Assembly (NCBI RefSeq): GCF_048403405.1
Contig: NZ_CP183129.1
Length of the DNA: 64,000 nt
DNA from: Escherichia coli
GTDB taxonomy: Bacteria; Pseudomonadota; Gammaproteobacteria; Enterobacterales; Enterobacteriaceae
Direction: 5' to 3' (one strand)
Positions 2,563 through 38,616 of the stretch are shown piece after piece (position 1 is the stretch's first letter; each line of letters begins with the position of its first letter). The position numbers and the translations under genes were made by a program. The notes beneath the pieces were generated by a model. The model searched no databases. It saw only the letters and a list, made by a program, of their open reading frames with translations, and was not told the origin of the DNA.

Positions 2563-4701
2563 ATGACACCGCATGTGATGAAACGAGACGGCTGCAAAGT
2601 GCCGTTTAAATCAGAGCGCATCAAAGAAGCGATTCTGCGTGCAGCTAAAGCAGCGGAAGTCGATGATGCCGATTATTGCGCCACTGTTGCCGCGGTTGTC
2701 AGCGAGCAGATGCAGGGCCGCAACCAGGTGGATATCAATGAGATCCAGACCGCAGTTGAAAACCAGCTGATGTCGGGTCCATACAAACAACTGGCTCGTG
2801 CTTACATCGAGTACCGTCACGATCGCGACATTGAACGTGAAAAACGCGGTCGCCTGAACCAGGAGATCCGTGGTCTGGTCGAGCAGACCAACTCCTCGTT
2901 ACTCAACGAAAACGCCAACAAAGACAGCAAGGTGATTCCAACCCAGCGCGATCTGCTGGCCGGGATCGTGGCTAAACACTATGCACGCCAGCACCTGCTG
3001 CCGCGTGACGTGGTGCAGGCACATGAACGTGGTGATATTCACTATCACGATCTCGATTACTCGCCGTTCTTCCCGATGTTCAACTGCATGTTGATCGACC
3101 TGAAAGGCATGCTGACCCAGGGCTTTAAAATGGGGAACGCCGAGATTGAACCGCCGAAGTCGATCTCTACGGCAACCGCGGTAACTGCGCAGATTATTGC
3201 CCAGGTCGCCAGCCATATTTATGGCGGCACCACCATTAACCGTATCGATGAAGTGCTGGCACCGTTTGTCACCGCCAGCTACAACAAACATCGCAAGACC
3301 GCAGAAGAGTGGAACATCCCGGACGCCGAAGGCTACGCTAACTCTCGTACCATCAAAGAGTGCTACGATGCCTTCCAGTCGCTGGAGTACGAAGTAAACA
3401 CCCTGCACACCGCCAACGGTCAAACGCCGTTTGTGACCTTTGGTTTTGGTCTGGGCACCAGCTGGGAATCGCGCCTGATTCAGGAATCTATCCTGCGTAA
3501 TCGTATCGCAGGCCTCGGTAAAAACCGTAAAACTGCGGTGTTCCCGAAACTGGTGTTTGCGATTCGCGATGGCCTGAACCATAAAAAAGGCGATCCGAAC
3601 TACGACATCAAACAGCTGGCGCTGGAGTGCGCAAGCAAGCGCATGTATCCGGATATCCTGAACTACGATCAGGTAGTGAAAGTCACCGGTTCGTTTAAAA
3701 CCCCGATGGGCTGCCGCAGCTTCCTCGGCGTGTGGGAAAATGAAAACGGCGAGCAGATCCACGATGGTCGTAACAACCTCGGCGTGATCAGCCTGAACCT
3801 GCCGCGTATTGCTCTGGAGGCAAAAGGCGATGAAGCCACCTTCTGGAAGCTGCTGGATGAACGTCTGGTGCTGGCACGTAAGGCGCTGATGACCCGTATC
3901 GCTCGTCTCGAAGGCGTGAAAGCGCGCGTAGCCCCGATCCTCTATATGGAAGGCGCTTGTGGCGTGCGTCTGAATGCTGACGACGACGTTTCTGAAATCT
4001 TCAAAAACGGTCGTGCGTCTATTTCGCTGGGTTACATCGGCATCCACGAAACCATTAACGCGCTGTTCGGCGGCGAGCATGTTTACGACAACGAGCAGCT
4101 GCGCGCGAAAGGTATTGCGATTGTTGAACGTCTGCGTCAGGCAGTGGATCAGTGGAAAGAAGAAACGGGTTATGGCTTCAGTCTCTACAGCACGCCGAGT
4201 GAAAACCTGTGCGACCGCTTCTGCCGTCTCGATACCGCTGAGTTTGGCGTGGTGCCGGGCGTGACCGATAAAGGTTACTACACCAACAGTTTCCACCTTG
4301 ATGTGGAGAAAAAGGTGAACCCGTATGACAAGATCGACTTTGAAGCGCCTTACCCGCCGCTGGCGAACGGTGGTTTCATTTGCTACGGCGAGTATCCAAA
4401 CATTCAGCACAACCTGAAGGCGCTGGAAGATGTCTGGGATTACAGCTATCAGCATGTACCGTATTACGGCACCAATACGCCGATCGATGAGTGCTACGAG
4501 TGTGGCTTTACTGGCGAGTTCGAGTGCACCAGCAAAGGCTTCACTTGCCCGAAATGTGGTAACCATGACGCCTCCCGTGTGTCGGTGACTCGCCGCGTGT
4601 GCGGATATTTAGGTAGCCCGGATGCACGTCCGTTTAACGCCGGTAAGCAGGAAGAAGTTAAGCGCCGCGTTAAACATTTGGGGAATGGGCAGATAGGTTA
4701 A
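2563..4701 (+). CDS. nrdD: anaerobic ribonucleoside-triphosphate reductase
   Basis: 712 aa; ATP-cone N-terminus, C-terminal glycyl-radical and Zn-ribbon Cys motifs (CYECGF...CPKCG). Confidence 0.97.
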   Translation: MTPHVMKRDGCKVPFKSERIKEAILRAAKAAEVDDADYCATVAAVVSEQMQGRNQVDINEIQTAVENQLMSGPYKQLARAYIEYRHDRDIEREKRGRLNQEIRGLVEQTNSSLLNENANKDSKVIPTQRDLLAGIVAKHYARQHLLPRDVVQAHERGDIHYHDLDYSPFFPMFNCMLIDLKGMLTQGFKMGNAEIEPPKSISTATAVTAQIIAQVASHIYGGTTINRIDEVLAPFVTASYNKHRKTAEEWNIPDAEGYANSRTIKECYDAFQSLEYEVNTLHTANGQTPFVTFGFGLGTSWESRLIQESILRNRIAGLGKNRKTAVFPKLVFAIRDGLNHKKGDPNYDIKQLALECASKRMYPDILNYDQVVKVTGSFKTPMGCRSFLGVWENENGEQIHDGRNNLGVISLNLPRIALEAKGDEATFWKLLDERLVLARKALMTRIARLEGVKARVAPILYMEGACGVRLNADDDVSEIFKNGRASISLGYIGIHETINALFGGEHVYDNEQLRAKGIAIVERLRQAVDQWKEETGYGFSLYSTPSENLCDRFCRLDTAEFGVVPGVTDKGYYTNSFHLDVEKKVNPYDKIDFEAPYPPLANGGFICYGEYPNIQHNLKALEDVWDYSYQHVPYYGTNTPIDECYECGFTGEFECTSKGFTCPKCGNHDASRVSVTRRVCGYLGSPDARPFNAGKQEEVKRRVKHLGNGQIG

Positions 4702-4720
4702 TCCTTCCCCCTCACCCTAA

Positions 4721-4742
4721 CCCTCTCCCTCAAGGGAGAGGG
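4721..4742. other. perfect 9-bp stem hairpin in the C-rich nrdD-nrdG spacer
   Basis: ccctctccc (4721-4729), loop tcaa, gggagaggg (4734-4742); no T-run follows. Confidence 0.5.
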
Positions 4743-4885
4743 TACCGTTCCGTGCCCCTTCCTGATTCCCGACATAATGAATTGCCTCTGGCCAGTTGGT
4801 GTCGTCGCAAGGTGGCAAATGCGTAGCATCGGGGGACTTCGCCCGTACGCACCAGAGCAGTCATGGCGTCAATTGAGAATCGAAA

Positions 4886-5350
4886 ATGAACTTTCATCAG
4901 TACTATCCTGTCGACATCGTCAACGGCCCCGGCACTCGCTGCACCCTGTTTGTCTCCGGGTGTGTTCATGAATGCCCCGGTTGCTATAACAAAAGCACAT
5001 GGCGGGTAAATTCCGGTCAGCCATTTACCAAAGCAATGGAAGACCAGATCATTAACGATCTAAATGACACTCGCATCAAACGCCAGGGGATTTCCCTCTC
5101 CGGCGGCGATCCGCTGCATCCGCAAAACGTGCCGGATATTCTGAAACTGGTACAACGAATCCGCGCCGAATGTCCGGGTAAAGACATTTGGGTGTGGACA
5201 GGCTATAAACTCGACGAACTCAACGCTGCGCAAATGCAGGTTGTTGATTTGATTAACGTACTGGTCGACGGCAAATTTGTGCAGGATTTAAAAGACCCTT
5301 CCCTGATCTGGCGCGGCAGCAGCAATCAGGTGGTGCATCATTTGCGATGA
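4886..5350 (+). CDS. nrdG: anaerobic ribonucleotide reductase activating protein (radical SAM)
   Basis: 154 aa; Cys cluster CVHECPGC typical of glycyl-radical activases. Confidence 0.95.
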   Translation: MNFHQYYPVDIVNGPGTRCTLFVSGCVHECPGCYNKSTWRVNSGQPFTKAMEDQIINDLNDTRIKRQGISLSGGDPLHPQNVPDILKLVQRIRAECPGKDIWVWTGYKLDELNAAQMQVVDLINVLVDGKFVQDLKDPSLIWRGSSNQVVHHLR

Positions 5351-5354
5351 TAAG

Positions 5355-5386
5355 TTCCCTGTTACCTGAGTGCAGGCAACAGGGAA
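5355..5386. terminator. hairpin between the convergent nrdG and cybC stop codons
   Basis: ttccctgtt (5355-5363) pairs with aacagggaa (5378-5386); lies exactly between stops at 5348-5350 and 5395-5397; no clear U-tract. Confidence 0.45.
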
Positions 5387-5394
5387 ATAAGGAA

Positions 5395-5784
<390 letters not shown>

Positions 5785-25923: not shown

Positions 25924-26478
25924 ATGACCCTACGCAAGATTCTGGCACTCACCTGCCTGCTGTTGCCGATGATGGCTTCCGCACATCAGTTCGAAACCGG
26001 TCAGCGAGTGCCGCCGATTGGCATTACCGATCGTGGCGAGTTGGTGCTTGATAAAGATCAGTTTAGCTACAAAACCTGGAACAGCGCGCAGTTAGTGGGA
26101 AAAGTGCGAGTACTGCAACATATTGCTGGTCGCACCTCTGCAAAAGAGAAAAACGCGACGCTGATTGAAGCGATTAAATCAGCAAAGTTACCGCACGATC
26201 GTTACCAGACCACCACCATTGTTAACACCGACGACGCAATTCCGGGTTCCGGCATGTTTGTGCGCAGCAGTCTGGAAAGTAATAAAAAGCTTTATCCCTG
26301 GTCGCAGTTTATTGTCGATAGCAATGGCGTCGCGCGCGGTGCCTGGCAGCTGGATGAAGAAAGTTCCGCTGTAGTGGTGCTGGATAAAGACGGTCGCGTG
26401 CAATGGGCCAAAGACGGGGCGCTCACACAGGAAGAGGTGCAGCAAGTGATGGACCTGCTGCAAAAGTTGCTCAAATAA
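25924..26478 (+). CDS. ytfJ: periplasmic protein YtfJ
   Basis: 184 aa with signal peptide. Confidence 0.9.
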   Translation: MTLRKILALTCLLLPMMASAHQFETGQRVPPIGITDRGELVLDKDQFSYKTWNSAQLVGKVRVLQHIAGRTSAKEKNATLIEAIKSAKLPHDRYQTTTIVNTDDAIPGSGMFVRSSLESNKKLYPWSQFIVDSNGVARGAWQLDEESSAVVVLDKDGRVQWAKDGALTQEEVQQVMDLLQKLLK

Positions 26479-26510
26479 TGGCAATAACATAAATTCTGCA
26501 AAATAATTTT

Positions 26511-26537
26511 CCCCTATCGTTATCTATGGGATAGGGG
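26511..26537. terminator. hairpin between the convergent ytfJ and ytfI
   Basis: cccctatc (26511-26518) pairs with gatagggg (26530-26537), flanked by A/T-rich sequence. Confidence 0.55.
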
Positions 26538-26566
26538 AATTAAGCCTCTGAGTTCTTACGCCGAAC

Positions 26567-27478
26567 TCATACTGGTAACGCTAGTTGCTTTTTTTTAAAC
26601 GCCTCAATGGTCGATTTATATTTCTCGCAAATCTTTTCTTCGGTAATATCACTATCTGCGGCCAGATTCGCACTTACTATCGCATCCACTTGTTCGGCTA
26701 ATTCGACTTGTTGGCAACCTGCATTAACCAGAAAATTATAAATAAGAGAGTAATCTTCATCCTTCAAAAAAACAGAGGAACCATTACGAAAACGTTCATC
26801 CCCTCCATAGATTTTAAGCGCAAAGCCCAAAGATTCTATGACTATGGCAAAATTATCATCAATTATTTTTTCGTAAATATACCATCCATCGCATTCTTTA
26901 ATTCCACCTCCTGGAATTTGGAGGTCAAATTTACCCCGTTTTAATTTGCTTACTATATCCTCCAATAAGGCATAACCTAAAGACACGTCACCAATCGCCT
27001 GGCGAATATAACCTTTAATCCTTTCCGGTATGTCAGACTGTTTTTTCTGCAGAATATCCCGGGCATACAATCTTCTGTTTTGTTCTAACGGAAACTCGCG
27101 GTTTTTGAAATCCATGAATGAGTTATACTCATTTATTGTTATGGGAATTTCTTCGTATTCAAACCCACTGCCTCGCAATGTCATTATATATTTGGCACCG
27201 TTATCTTTAATGCTGAAACTGATAAGAAACTTATCCATGGCGTGAACATTTTCATTTTTTGATGAAAGCACCTGATAACTACTTTTATCAATCTGAGTTG
27301 CGCAACGAAAGAACTCCCGCAAAGTTAACAGGCTATCATAATTCGAAATCCAATCTTTTTTCTTAAATGCATGCTGGATATTGTTAAAAAAATTGTTTGA
27401 ATGTGTTTTTGTATGCGATGATTTTACGAATAACTCCACCGCACCAATAAAATTATTGTGTCTGATCCTGGGTAACAT
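26567..27478 (-). CDS. ytfI: uncharacterised protein YtfI (AT-rich orphan gene)
   Basis: 303 aa ORF with ATG at 27476-27478; markedly AT-rich; no domain recognisable by eye. Confidence 0.8.
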   Translation of the reverse strand: MLPRIRHNNFIGAVELFVKSSHTKTHSNNFFNNIQHAFKKKDWISNYDSLLTLREFFRCATQIDKSSYQVLSSKNENVHAMDKFLISFSIKDNGAKYIMTLRGSGFEYEEIPITINEYNSFMDFKNREFPLEQNRRLYARDILQKKQSDIPERIKGYIRQAIGDVSLGYALLEDIVSKLKRGKFDLQIPGGGIKECDGWYIYEKIIDDNFAIVIESLGFALKIYGGDERFRNGSSVFLKDEDYSLIYNFLVNAGCQQVELAEQVDAIVSANLAADSDITEEKICEKYKSTIEAFKKKQLALPV

Positions 27479-27690
27479 ATGGCTACCTTATTTTATTTGG
27501 TTATTTTATGTCGCCATTAAATATCTCATTATAGAAGTATAACTATCAAAAAACGCTCATTATTAAAATGTAACTTATTAGCAATTGAATTTTTGCACTT
27601 TAAATACAATCTCTTTTTATTTATAACTTTTTAGGTTGAGAGAAATCAGGATGGCAGAATCAGGAAATACACTGTTTCTGCCATCTGAAT

Positions 27691-28431
27691 TTAGTAAATA
27701 GACACTCTGAATCCCGGATTCAGGAACGACTCGCGCGGAGTGTAATCCAGCGGTTTACCCTGCCAGTCGTGAACGTGCGCTCCGGCAGCTGCGGCCACAG
27801 CATGTCCAGCGGCGGTGTCCCAAATATTCGTTGGTCCGAAGCGCGGGTACAGCTGCGCCTGCCCTTCCGCCACCAGGCAGAATTTCAGCGAAGAGCCGAT
27901 GGACGTGGTCTGATGTTCGCCAAGCTGTTGCAGATACTCTTTCAGCTCCGCATCTGCATGGGAACGGCTGATAACCACCAGCGGCGGGCGCGCATCACGG
28001 ACCTGAATCTGCTTGCGCACGCCGCACTCTTCTTTCCACGCTTTGCCTTCTGCCGCGCTGTACATTACGTTCATTACCGGCGCATACACCACACCTAAAA
28101 TCGGTTTGCCGTGGTCGATGAGCGCAATGTTAACGGTGAATTCGCCATTGCGTTTAATAAACTCTTTAGTACCATCCAGCGGGTCTACCAGCCAGTAACG
28201 CTGCCAGTGCTGACGGACTTCCCAACCGGGAGGATCTTCTTCAGAAAGCACCGGAATATCCGGTGTCAGCGTACGTAAACCGTCCATGATAACGGTGTGA
28301 GCGGCAATATCCGCTGCCGTTACCGGAGAATTGTCCGCTTTGCTGACGACGTCCATCGGTTTCGTCCCGTCGTAGACCTGCATAATGGCATCGCCTGCAT
28401 TCCGTGCAAGCTGGCATACTTGATCTAACAT
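27691..28431 (-). CDS. cysQ: 3'(2'),5'-bisphosphate nucleotidase
   Basis: 246 aa inositol monophosphatase family (DPLDGT motif). Confidence 0.95.
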
Positions 28432-36456: not shown

Positions 36457-37095
36457 ATGCCCGGGCGCTTTGAACTAAAACCAACCCTGGAGAAAGTCTG
36501 GCACGCGCCAGACAATTTTCGCTTCATGGACCCGCTGCCGCCGATGCATCGTCGGGGGATCATTATTGCCGCCATTGTATTGGTGGTCGGATTTCTGCTT
36601 CCATCTGATGATACGCCCAACGCGCCGGTGGTGACGCGTGAAGCGCAGTTAGATATTCAGTCGCAATCACAACCACCGACAGAAGAACAGCTGCGGGCGC
36701 AATTAGTCACGCCACAAAATGATCCTGATCAGGTGGCTCCGGTCGCTCCAGAACCAATACAGGAAGGCCAGCCAGAAGAGCAGCCGCAACCCCCCCAAAC
36801 GCAACCATTCCAGCCAGATAGCGGAATTGATAATCAATGGCGCTCTTACCGTGTCGAACCCGGTAAAACGATGGCACAGCTGTTCCGCGACCACGGGCTG
36901 CCCGCTACCGATGTCTATGCAATGGCGCAGGTAGAAGGCGCGGGTAAGCCGCTGAGTAATTTGCAAAACGGGCAGATGGTGAAAATCCGCCAGAACGCCA
37001 GCGGCGTGGTGACGGGCTTAACCATTGATACGGGGAATAATCAACAGGTCTTGTTTACCCGCCAGCCGGATGGCAGTTTTATTCGTGCGCGGTAG
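36457..37095 (+). CDS. ytfB: cell division protein YtfB (OapA-like)
   Basis: 212 aa from MPGRFELK (ATG 36457 with aggagg SD); TM segment and Pro/Gln-rich linker. Confidence 0.9.
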
Positions 37096-37404
37096 ATGAA
37101 GGGTCAACCAAAAGCCAGCTAAGGATTGTCTCTTTGATGACCTTACGTCTGGCTTCCAGTGCCTGGGGGAAACCATACTGATATGATAAACCAGGCCAAG
37201 CGTATGCTGGTTGATCAAATAATATCCCCCAAGCGCAGCAATATTAATATACACCTGCAATGGGTCGATATCTGGCTTAAAAATATTGTGTTTCTTCCCT
37301 TCATCCAATAAGGATTCCATTAACTGCAAGTGCGCATGATTAATTTCTAAGAGACGCTGTGATTTTGCATAATGCACACCTTTACTTTGGTTTTCACTAT
37401 GCAC
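37018..37404 (-). pseudogene. ytfA: remnant of a TetR-family regulator (C-terminal ligand-binding part only)
   Basis: ORF with GTG start; sequence (…[22 protein letters not shown]…) resembles a TetR C-terminal domain; no HTH domain; overlaps the ytfB 3' end antisense by 78 nt. Confidence 0.45.
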
Positions 37405-37751
37405 AATTTTTAAAAACCTGGGATTAGCAATATAATAATTCCATGTAAAATCAATAATTTCTCAATGGCACTTGTGTCTGGTTAACCTGCTGATTAACGA
37501 ACTTACCGATACCGACAGCGTAGAATAATTACATACCGCACAACAAGAATGTATGGTGTAAGGCGTTGTCAGTCATCTCCCTCCCTGGGTGCATCGTTAT
37601 ATCCGTGATGAGCGATTTTTGATATTAATATCTTTTACTATCCGCTATTTTCACCACTTCAGAAAACAAACTTATTTTTATTAATATCAACTCTTTTTCT
37701 TTGAACATTCAACTGCGATATTTGTAAAAATATTAAACAGGCAACAATAAA

Positions 37752-38546
37752 ATGACATTACCAACCACTATTTATTCATTTCCTGCATATTCACCCCGTT
37801 TTTCGTCCACCGACAAACCAGTAAAATTAAAATTTCATCAATACGCACGCGCTACATTACTTTCAAATCGTGGAAGAGACCATAATTGCGATGGCAGACA
37901 TACTGTTGAGATCCACAAACTAGATCTCTCAGACTGGCAAGCATTCAATAAGTTAGCGACGAGGTGTAATACTTACGATGGAATAACAATGAATGGTGAT
38001 AATTCTTTTGGATGGAACCATGAAGCTACATTAGATAATATTCACGCCCAGAAATACAATAAAGCTTACGCGGGTGCGAGGTTAACCGCAGAACTGAAAT
38101 ATTTATTGCAAGATGTTGAATCCTTCGAACCCAACAGTAAATACACAATACACGAGGTTGTTTTGGGACCTGGTTATAGTACTCCAGACTATACCGGCCA
38201 AACGATAGGATACGTTGTAACCCTTCCTGCCCAAATGCCTAATTGCTGGTCATCTGAACTACCAACAATCGATCTTTATATCGACCAACTTCGCACTGTT
38301 ACAGGCGTTTCTAATGCCCTCGGATTCATCATTGCTGCATTGCTAAACGCGTATTCTGATTTACCCCATGATTTGAAAATTGGTCTGCGTTCCTTATCAA
38401 GTTCAGCAGCAATCTACTCGGGTTTGGGTTTCGAGCGAGTGCCGCAGGAGCGAGACATAAGGAGTGATCGTATGCATCTAACGCCAGCAAACCATCCTGA
38501 ATTATGGACACAAGAGAATGGTGAATGGATCTACTTGCGAAACTAA
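37752..38546 (+). CDS. yjfZ: uncharacterised protein YjfZ (AT-rich orphan gene)
   Basis: 264 aa; AT-rich; preceded by a 347-bp AT-rich non-coding region. Confidence 0.8.
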   Translation: MTLPTTIYSFPAYSPRFSSTDKPVKLKFHQYARATLLSNRGRDHNCDGRHTVEIHKLDLSDWQAFNKLATRCNTYDGITMNGDNSFGWNHEATLDNIHAQKYNKAYAGARLTAELKYLLQDVESFEPNSKYTIHEVVLGPGYSTPDYTGQTIGYVVTLPAQMPNCWSSELPTIDLYIDQLRTVTGVSNALGFIIAALLNAYSDLPHDLKIGLRSLSSSAAIYSGLGFERVPQERDIRSDRMHLTPANHPELWTQENGEWIYLRN

Positions 38547-38566
38547 TACCTAACGAAAAATAGAAA

Positions 38567-38597
38567 GCAAAACGCCGACCAGTGGTCGGCGTTTTTA
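38567..38597. terminator. bidirectional rho-independent terminator between yjfZ and rplI
   Basis: aacgccgacc-agt-ggtcggcgtt perfect 10-bp stem with A-run upstream and ttttt downstream. Confidence 0.8.
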
Positions 38598-38616
38598 CGT
38601 CTCGTTGAATAACGAA

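Follow-up and report, generated by a model that had tools for sequence, protein, structure and literature searches.

ytfI, an AT-rich orphan gene islet at the junction of the convergent core genes ytfJ and cysQ in Escherichia coli

We analyzed a 64-kb stretch of Escherichia coli DNA (contig NZ_CP183129.1 of assembly GCF_048403405.1), called the window here, and in it the gene ytfI and the short islet that carries it. ytfI lies on the minus strand at 26567-27478. It starts with ATG and encodes a protein of 303 aa. The core gene cysQ (27691-28431) is on the same strand, and ytfI is downstream of it. The core gene ytfJ (25924-26478) is on the plus strand and is convergent with ytfI. The islet extends over 26479..27690, with an uncertainty of about 10 bp at its left edge. 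It contains about 1.21 kb with a GC content of about 0.34, and it is absent from the ancestral junction, in which ytfJ and cysQ stand tail to tail. Over 26400-27800, the window matched E. coli strain 4621 at 100% identity and K-12 at 96.9%. In K-12, the open reading frame (ORF) is annotated as 'ytfI: protein YtfI'. The allele in the window encodes 303 aa and those of K-12 and O157 encode 312 aa. The difference is a single TTA to TGA change at 26567-26569, which ends the frame 9 codons earlier. In divergent alleles, the C-terminal tails of YtfI are wholly different in both sequence and length.

A preliminary description of this DNA, made by eye, had held ytfI and the 212 bp upstream of it to be AT-rich relative to their neighbors. 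The computed values bear this out. The GC content was 0.363 for the ytfI ORF (0.434, 0.306, and 0.349 at codon positions 1, 2, and 3) and 0.274 for the 212-bp spacer upstream of it (27479-27690). The neighboring genes had values of 0.519 (ytfJ), 0.555 (cysQ), 0.496 (cpdB), and 0.507 (ytfL). The span 26567-27690 had an overall GC content of 0.346, against a mean of 0.515 for the window. It was the lowest-GC stretch of 1,124 bp in the window (z = -4.46), and 0.05% of sliding windows were equally low. Codon usage was also set apart. The GC content at third codon positions (GC3) was 0.349 for ytfI, compared with 0.55 to 0.60. Seven rare codons made up 7.3% of ytfI codons and 0.7 to 2.7% of codons in the neighbors, so that they were three- to tenfold commoner in ytfI. 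An index modeled on the codon adaptation index, with the neighbors as the reference, was 0.57 for ytfI and 0.68 to 0.71 for the neighbors.

The ytfJ/cysQ junction was surveyed with YtfJ as the query and one genome per species, and 80 loci were returned. The gap between the ends of ytfJ and cysQ was 30 bp or less in 74 of these 80 species-representative Enterobacteriaceae loci. Tight junctions were found in Citrobacter, Salmonella, Klebsiella, Raoultella, Enterobacter, and Kosakonia. They were also found in Escherichia whittamii, Escherichia sp. E1V33, the strain E69 lineage, and Escherichia sp. MOD1-EC7003. Because the tight junction is widespread among species, it is taken as the ancestral state, with the 1.21 kb at about 26479-27690 as DNA inserted into it. 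In E. coli HS, which has no insert, the 3' ends of ytfJ and cysQ overlap by 11 bp, tail to tail. The last five or so codons of ytfJ read HKLINK* in this strain and QKLLK* in the window. ytfI was carried by 1,621-1,622 of 5,426 complete E. coli genomes (29.9%), in every case as a single chromosomal copy, and it was found in O157:H7 and Shigella. The other genomes, about 70%, have no ytfI and keep overlapping or nearly abutting ytfJ and cysQ stop codons. The gene is thus not universal in E. coli. The intact ancestral junction in relatives, together with the low GC content, upholds the preliminary claim that ytfI was inserted between core genes and was horizontally acquired.

The islet contained no transposase, integrase, tRNA, or att site, and repeats at its ends, whether inverted or direct, did not exceed chance. 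It does not have the makeup of an insertion sequence (IS), an integron cassette, or an integrative island. No clear target-site duplication was found. At most, both junctions have an imperfect AT-rich likeness to the ancestral AATAAATAG overlap. The empty junction of E. coli was also considered as a deletion scar. It has four differences from the E. whittamii junction, and these fit ordinary divergence (flank synonymous divergence, dS, of about 0.45 to 0.5). There is no evidence of a deletion scar at this junction, and allele replacement may have occurred.

Alleles whose proteins were 94%, 78%, and 69% identical to YtfI of the window all occupied the ytfJ/cysQ site. Between the window and K-12, dS was 0.087 for ytfI and 0.086 for cysQ. 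It was 0.36 and 0.21, respectively, between the window and the L005 lineage and 0.67 and 0.64 between the window and the L003/L009 lineage. The flanks of the L009 lineage have a dS of about 0.6 from E. coli, on par with E. whittamii or E69, so this lineage is placed as a separate species-level lineage of Escherichia. Because ytfI dS tracks cysQ dS up to species-level splits, the islet is read as old and as co-inherited with its flanks since about the L009 split. The preliminary claim of horizontal acquisition therefore holds for the origin of the gene and not as a recent arrival, since the islet has codiverged with its flanks across Escherichia lineages. All alleles had a GC content of 0.34 to 0.36. 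GC3 was 0.30 to 0.35 in every allele, which argues that there has been no drift to host composition. Empty junctions of the ancestral type are still found in E. coli as well as in several of its sister lineages. Either the presence/absence polymorphism outlived speciation or alleles were swapped repeatedly by recombination in the flanks.

A difference was also seen between the two halves of cysQ. In insert carriers, the 3' half, which is proximal to the islet, had a much higher dS than the 5' half (0.37 versus 0.08 in L005, 0.87 versus 0.46 in L009, and 1.34 versus 0.48 in L013). In most empty-junction lineages, this gap was smaller or nil; the sample is small. Such an excess could reflect linked haplotypes of greater age or a faster rate of change beside DNA bound by H-NS.

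The ytfI ORF was open across lineages at a dS of about 0.6 to 0.7. The pairwise ratio of nonsynonymous to synonymous divergence (dN/dS, or omega) was 0.22 to 0.37 for ytfI, 0.01 to 0.02 for cysQ, and 0.03 to 0.04 for cpdB. For ytfI, every comparison tested gave a ratio significantly lower than 1 (Fisher p = 2e-4 to 5e-20). Omega was 0.08 to 0.25 for residues 1-128 and 0.14 to 1.2, mostly 0.4 to 0.8, for residues 129-300. No region of YtfI had a robust omega above 1. The P0003 allele looks mosaic, with dN raised only in the middle region and dS even along the gene. ytfI is a genuine protein-coding gene under purifying selection. In the lineage with 69% identity, an IS5-family transposase gene lies immediately after ytfI (locus L003/L004, 6967 onward).

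YtfI is an orphan that lacks homologues beyond Escherichia/Shigella. A word-indexed search of 5.8 billion proteins gave 18 matches, all from E. coli or Shigella. An exhaustive profile search of 1.84 billion representative proteins gave only ytfI fragments and frameshift products. A Pfam scan gave no match even at E values up to 10, and a sequence profile search of the PDB gave nothing below E = 0.9. In NCBIfam, the only match was Csx26 (NF049948) at 13 bits over residues 47-141, where the cutoff is 50 bits. With PADLOC (PADLOC-DB 2.0), the only match was Cas6b (PDLC02103) at 14 to 19 bits over residues 112-152, in all five alleles tested. A short helical stretch of YtfI resembles Cas6b at this level, which is far below the family threshold. 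The Cas6b and Csx26 matches were rejected as compositional noise. The Cas6b match covered 41 of 240 positions, and there was no CRISPR array or cas gene nearby. A PHROGs match to a family of unknown function (phrog_3250, E = 1e-4) faded to nothing in divergent alleles and was not relied on. A tblastn search of 50,697 phage records found no ytfI, and a scan of IMG/VR found none. Among plasmids, tblastn found ytfI only in mistyped chromosomes. The preliminary description had recognized no motif in the protein, and these searches lead to the same result.

YtfI has an isoelectric point of 6.55 and a grand average of hydropathy of -0.36. The maximum Kyte-Doolittle score over 19 residues was 1.28, and no transmembrane or signal segment was found. 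The protein is predicted to be soluble. The AlphaFold2 confidence score (predicted local distance difference test, pLDDT) was 58.2 for the full length and 58.6 for residues 44-258. The low-confidence models contain N-terminal helices and two units, each a beta-meander plus a helix (about residues 60-126 and 180-253), that are joined by helices. An internal duplication of the two beta units was considered and rejected (hhalign E = 0.28). Pur-alpha and Whirly entries recurred among the weak structure matches with noise-level scores. No credible fold match for YtfI was found in these comparisons.

The E. coli ORFans described by Daubin and Ochman in 2004 (Genome Research) are said to be short, AT-rich, and fast evolving, to lack homologues, and reportedly to have been proposed as phage derived. 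ytfI shares with them its AT-richness, the lack of homologues beyond the genus, a raised but constrained dN/dS, and long retention. It differs in that a phage origin is proposed there and no phage link was found for ytfI.

The DNA of the islet outside the ORF is also conserved. Over five alleles, including those with a coding dS of 0.67, the 212-bp spacer had a mean column identity of 92%, a level of conservation equal to that of the flanking core genes. A Shine-Dalgarno-like AAGGT is located on the minus strand at 27485..27489, 6 nt upstream of the ytfI ATG, and its AGGT core is invariant across alleles. A candidate sigma-70 promoter of ytfI, which is a consensus match only, lies on the minus strand at 27520..27549. 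It consists of TTGATA, an 18-nt spacer, and TG-n-GATATT (an extended -10). In other alleles, the spacer is 17 nt, and the -35 block is invariant. Promoter-like sites were not enriched in the islet (6 versus 4.8 expected).

A hairpin lies between ytfJ and ytfI at 26509..26539, with perfect 10-bp arms (26509-26518 and 26530-26539) and an 11-nt loop. The preliminary claim that the two genes converge across a hairpin was thus correct. Its folding free energy (dG) is -16 to -16.7 kcal/mol on either strand. It is present in divergent alleles and is part of the insert. Because AAUUAUUUUG comes after it on the minus strand, it is likely the ytfI terminator.

A longer hairpin of 43 nt is located at 27646..27688 on the minus strand and begins 3 nt past the cysQ stop codon. 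It has a dG of -21.4 kcal/mol (z = -5.1). It is nearly invariant across alleles, as is its loop, with one compensatory change from G-C to U-A. It occurs once per genome, only in genomes that carry ytfI, and it is part of the insert. Origin as a dispersed repeat was ruled out, since the hairpin is single copy and restricted to ytfI carriers. Probably, cysQ acquired it along with the islet as a terminator or 3'-end element. Judged by position, the islet hairpins would now stand 3' of both convergent core genes. The conserved loop of the longer hairpin suggests a role beyond that of a simple terminator. A search of 26400-27800 against Rfam gave no match. A mini-ORF of 12 codons, MAETVYFLILPS, lies inside this hairpin at 27684-27646 and starts 6 nt past the cysQ stop codon. 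In L009, the most divergent allele, it remains open and differs by one residue.

No antitoxin or partner gene was found in the islet, where the ORFs of the spacers are either 26 aa or shorter or unconserved. A possible partner ORF at 27381-27542 (53 aa, hydrophobic, antisense) was rejected as spurious. It is interrupted in K-12 and L005, and it has no start codon in L005, L009, and L092.

H-NS binding at this locus has been published. Higashi et al. (2016, PLoS Genet) present ytfI as a worked example of a K-12-specific insert with H-NS binding by chromatin affinity precipitation sequencing (PMC4720273, S10 Fig). The binding reaches cpdB, cysQ, ytfJ, and ytfK and is absent in SE11 and SE15, which have no ytfI (PMC4720273). 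The locus described there is the same as the one studied here, and there is no difference in kind between them. ytfI shares several features with H-NS-bound, AT-rich, strain-specific insertions as known from xenogeneic silencing. These are the low GC content, the absence at the orthologous site elsewhere, occupancy that spreads into core neighbors, and protein evolution that is faster than that of the core. The high-affinity H-NS motif TCGATAAATT occurred 72 times in the window (62 ± 8 expected), with no notable match in the islet, which says nothing either way on binding. The preliminary description had called the gene probably H-NS silenced. The published data for K-12 agree with this as far as occupancy goes, and silenced can be taken to mean occupancy only.

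Other published records of ytfI are few. It was the top 'disputed' sigma-32 target from chromatin immunoprecipitation, which subsequent work argued to be falsely positive (PMC3870955). In a study that called the gene uncharacterized, an ASKA clone that overexpressed it grew at three times the MIC of HOCl (hypochlorous acid; MIC, minimum inhibitory concentration) (PMC8228696). No function was assigned to ytfI in the literature searched, and a search for 'b4215' gave nothing relevant.

The ytfJ/cysQ junction has been entered repeatedly by foreign DNA in the Enterobacteriaceae. Escherichia albertii NBRC 107761 has a 1.5-kb islet with a GC content of 0.33 at this junction (locus L013, 4056-5559). 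It contains one ORF on the plus strand (4292-5449) that encodes 385 aa with pentapeptide repeats. The product has a weak match to the N terminus of the type III secretion system effector SopA (NF011904, E = 4e-5). Like the ytfI islet, this islet has the same insertion point, a similar size and GC content, one gene, and a terminator hairpin beside cysQ. Unlike YtfI, its protein has a recognizable repeat domain, and the gene runs in the opposite direction. The two proteins are unrelated (BLASTP E = 0.61). Citrobacter youngae ATCC 29220 has an insert of two genes (locus L041, 4176-6131), which encode a TIGR04222 membrane protein and then a radical SAM/SPASM enzyme. The TIGR04222 protein has a C-terminal tail rich in Cys, Gly, and Ser, and the insert looks like a peptide-maturation pair. 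In a second C. youngae genome, the junction was empty. Kluyvera genomosp. 1 (locus L065, 4056-5108) and Kluyvera cryocrescens have an insert of about 0.9 kb with normal GC content. It encodes a 350-aa protein weakly similar to serine DD-carboxypeptidases.

Elsewhere in the window, 36921-38600 was the second most GC-poor region (minimum, 0.376). It holds an ORF of 264 aa at 37752-38546 on the plus strand, beside rplI. Judged by its position, this ORF is probably yjfZ, another AT-rich uncharacterized gene.

With moderate confidence, we read the ytfI locus as an anciently acquired, H-NS-coated orphan islet that is restricted to Escherichia. Its gene would be functional, dispensable, and normally off and would encode a soluble, probably nonenzymatic binding protein. 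The insertion, its age, the selection on the gene, its orphan status, and the conserved regulatory DNA come from the present analysis. A single insertion, far in the past, would have placed the islet in the 3'-3' overlap of ytfJ and cysQ. Its own promoter region would have come with it, as would the hairpins at its two ends, which would now separate the convergent core genes. It appears to have been co-inherited with its flanks since then, staying AT-rich and segregating at about 30% of E. coli. H-NS, for which binding is taken from the literature (occupancy published for K-12), would coat the islet with its 27 to 36% GC. It may keep the sigma-70-type promoter largely off, so that YtfI would be made only on relief of silencing. 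The protein would be a soluble cytoplasmic alpha/beta protein with a tight N-terminal half, a variable C-terminal half, and no recognizable catalytic or membrane motif. Since there is no catalytic motif and a constrained N-terminal half is joined to a variable C-terminal half, partner binding appears likelier than enzyme activity. The silencing, the conditional expression, and the binding-type function are what we infer from the above. YtfI may thus be conditionally useful, dispensable, and not overtly toxic.

Several observations weigh against this reading. ytfI is absent from about 70% of E. coli. In strain 6EVA it is annotated as frameshifted, and in strain XJ5.2 an IS1 element has removed all but 64 bp of it. 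A form of YtfI that is truncated at the N terminus to 251 aa (P0007) makes up a large protein cluster. Given this absence and these damaged copies, any benefit would be weak or niche specific. Ancestral-type empty junctions occur beside the old islet in several lineages, which a simple single-gain model does not explain. Expression, proteomic, or phenotype data for ytfI were not found in the searchable literature. The models have a pLDDT of 58 to 59, so that statements on the fold and on the lack of a catalytic motif are weak.

The same absence and the same frameshifted, IS-deleted, and truncated copies would be expected if ytfI were a functionless foreign remnant that decays slowly and is tolerated through H-NS silencing. 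The variable length of the C-terminal tail (303 versus 312 aa), a dN/dS 10 to 30 times that of the neighbors, and the lack of a phenotype in the literature searched point the same way. A remnant would not be expected to keep a dN/dS of 0.22 to 0.37, below 1 in every comparison, with 0.08 to 0.25 in the N-terminal half. Nor would it be expected to stay open across lineages at a dS of about 0.6 to 0.7 or to have a promoter, a Shine-Dalgarno site, and an upstream spacer as conserved as core genes. We consider such decay quite unlikely. The preliminary description had suggested a toxin, a defense factor, or a phage-exclusion protein. ytfI could indeed be an anti-phage defense, abortive-infection, or phage-exclusion factor or a toxin that is kept quiet by H-NS. 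It is an accessory gene, present in 30% of E. coli, and it is AT-rich and H-NS bound. Its C-terminal half evolves faster (omega mostly 0.4 to 0.8), as the specificity surface of a protein in an arms race would, and an old polymorphism across lineages would fit balancing selection. The searches do not favor this. No PADLOC defense system includes ytfI, and the PADLOC result was limited to the 41-residue Cas6b match (14 to 19 bits). There was no Pfam or NCBIfam domain, and the family searches run showed no signature of nuclease, NTPase, TIR, SIR2, or membrane type. K-12 carries ytfI and is a standard phage-sensitive host. The site is not a defense island, no relatives were found in phages, plasmids, or viral contigs, and there was no robust omega above 1. 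The single-gene islet has no conserved antitoxin or partner ORF and does not resemble a toxin-antitoxin system. The published overexpression clone grew and was recovered as HOCl tolerant (PMC8228696), which speaks against toxicity. The suggestion was thus not borne out, and we regard this class of function as fairly unlikely.

The neighboring case of E. albertii raises another explanation, in which YtfI is secreted by a type III system (ETT2, LEE, or Mxi-Spa) as a substrate or effector, or is the relic of such a protein, as with many AT-rich, H-NS-silenced islets of one gene. The pentapeptide-repeat gene at the same junction weakly matches the SopA N terminus, and ytfI is present in O157:H7 and Shigella. 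The first 40 residues of YtfI are rich in Ser, Asn, and Thr and contain only one acidic residue (Glu15). The case also rests on fold matches at noise level. YtfI is unrelated to the E. albertii protein, however, and it belongs to no known effector family in NCBIfam or Pfam. ytfI is also intact and under purifying selection in K-12, which is not known to have a working type III system. We consider a role of this kind, or a relic of one, very unlikely. The two beta-meander-plus-helix units in the models (residues 60-126 and 180-253) might instead belong to a nucleic-acid-binding protein with two beta-beta-beta-beta-alpha units, similar to PUR or Whirly proteins. All of the scores for this were at noise level, and both searches came from one low-confidence model. 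Profile comparison gave no support for the internal repeat (hhalign E = 0.28), and a second model compared with an AlphaFold sample gave no such matches. We hold this identity to be highly improbable. A broader proposal is that YtfI founds a new family with a new fold and has an H-NS-gated role in biological conflict with a phage, a competitor, or a host. The polymorphism would then have been kept by balancing selection since before Escherichia split, and the ytfJ/cysQ overlap would be a dedicated landing site. We consider this proposal decidedly unlikely as a whole.

ytfI is an annotated y-gene of K-12 whose H-NS coating and origin from foreign DNA have both been published. The present analysis adds how old the islet is, that its GC content has not risen, that both the ORF and the DNA upstream of it are under selection, how far the orphan status extends, and that the junction has been used recurrently. 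The locus serves as a textbook case and is not a discovery. Its value is modest and lies in its being a clean natural example. It can be used to ask how a foreign gene stays AT-rich and H-NS bound over species-level time without loss or GC gain. It can also be used to ask how a presence/absence polymorphism can outlive speciation and why a 3'-3' overlap of convergent core genes repeatedly takes insertions. If YtfI proves functional, it would define a new family, because it has no sequence or fold relative.

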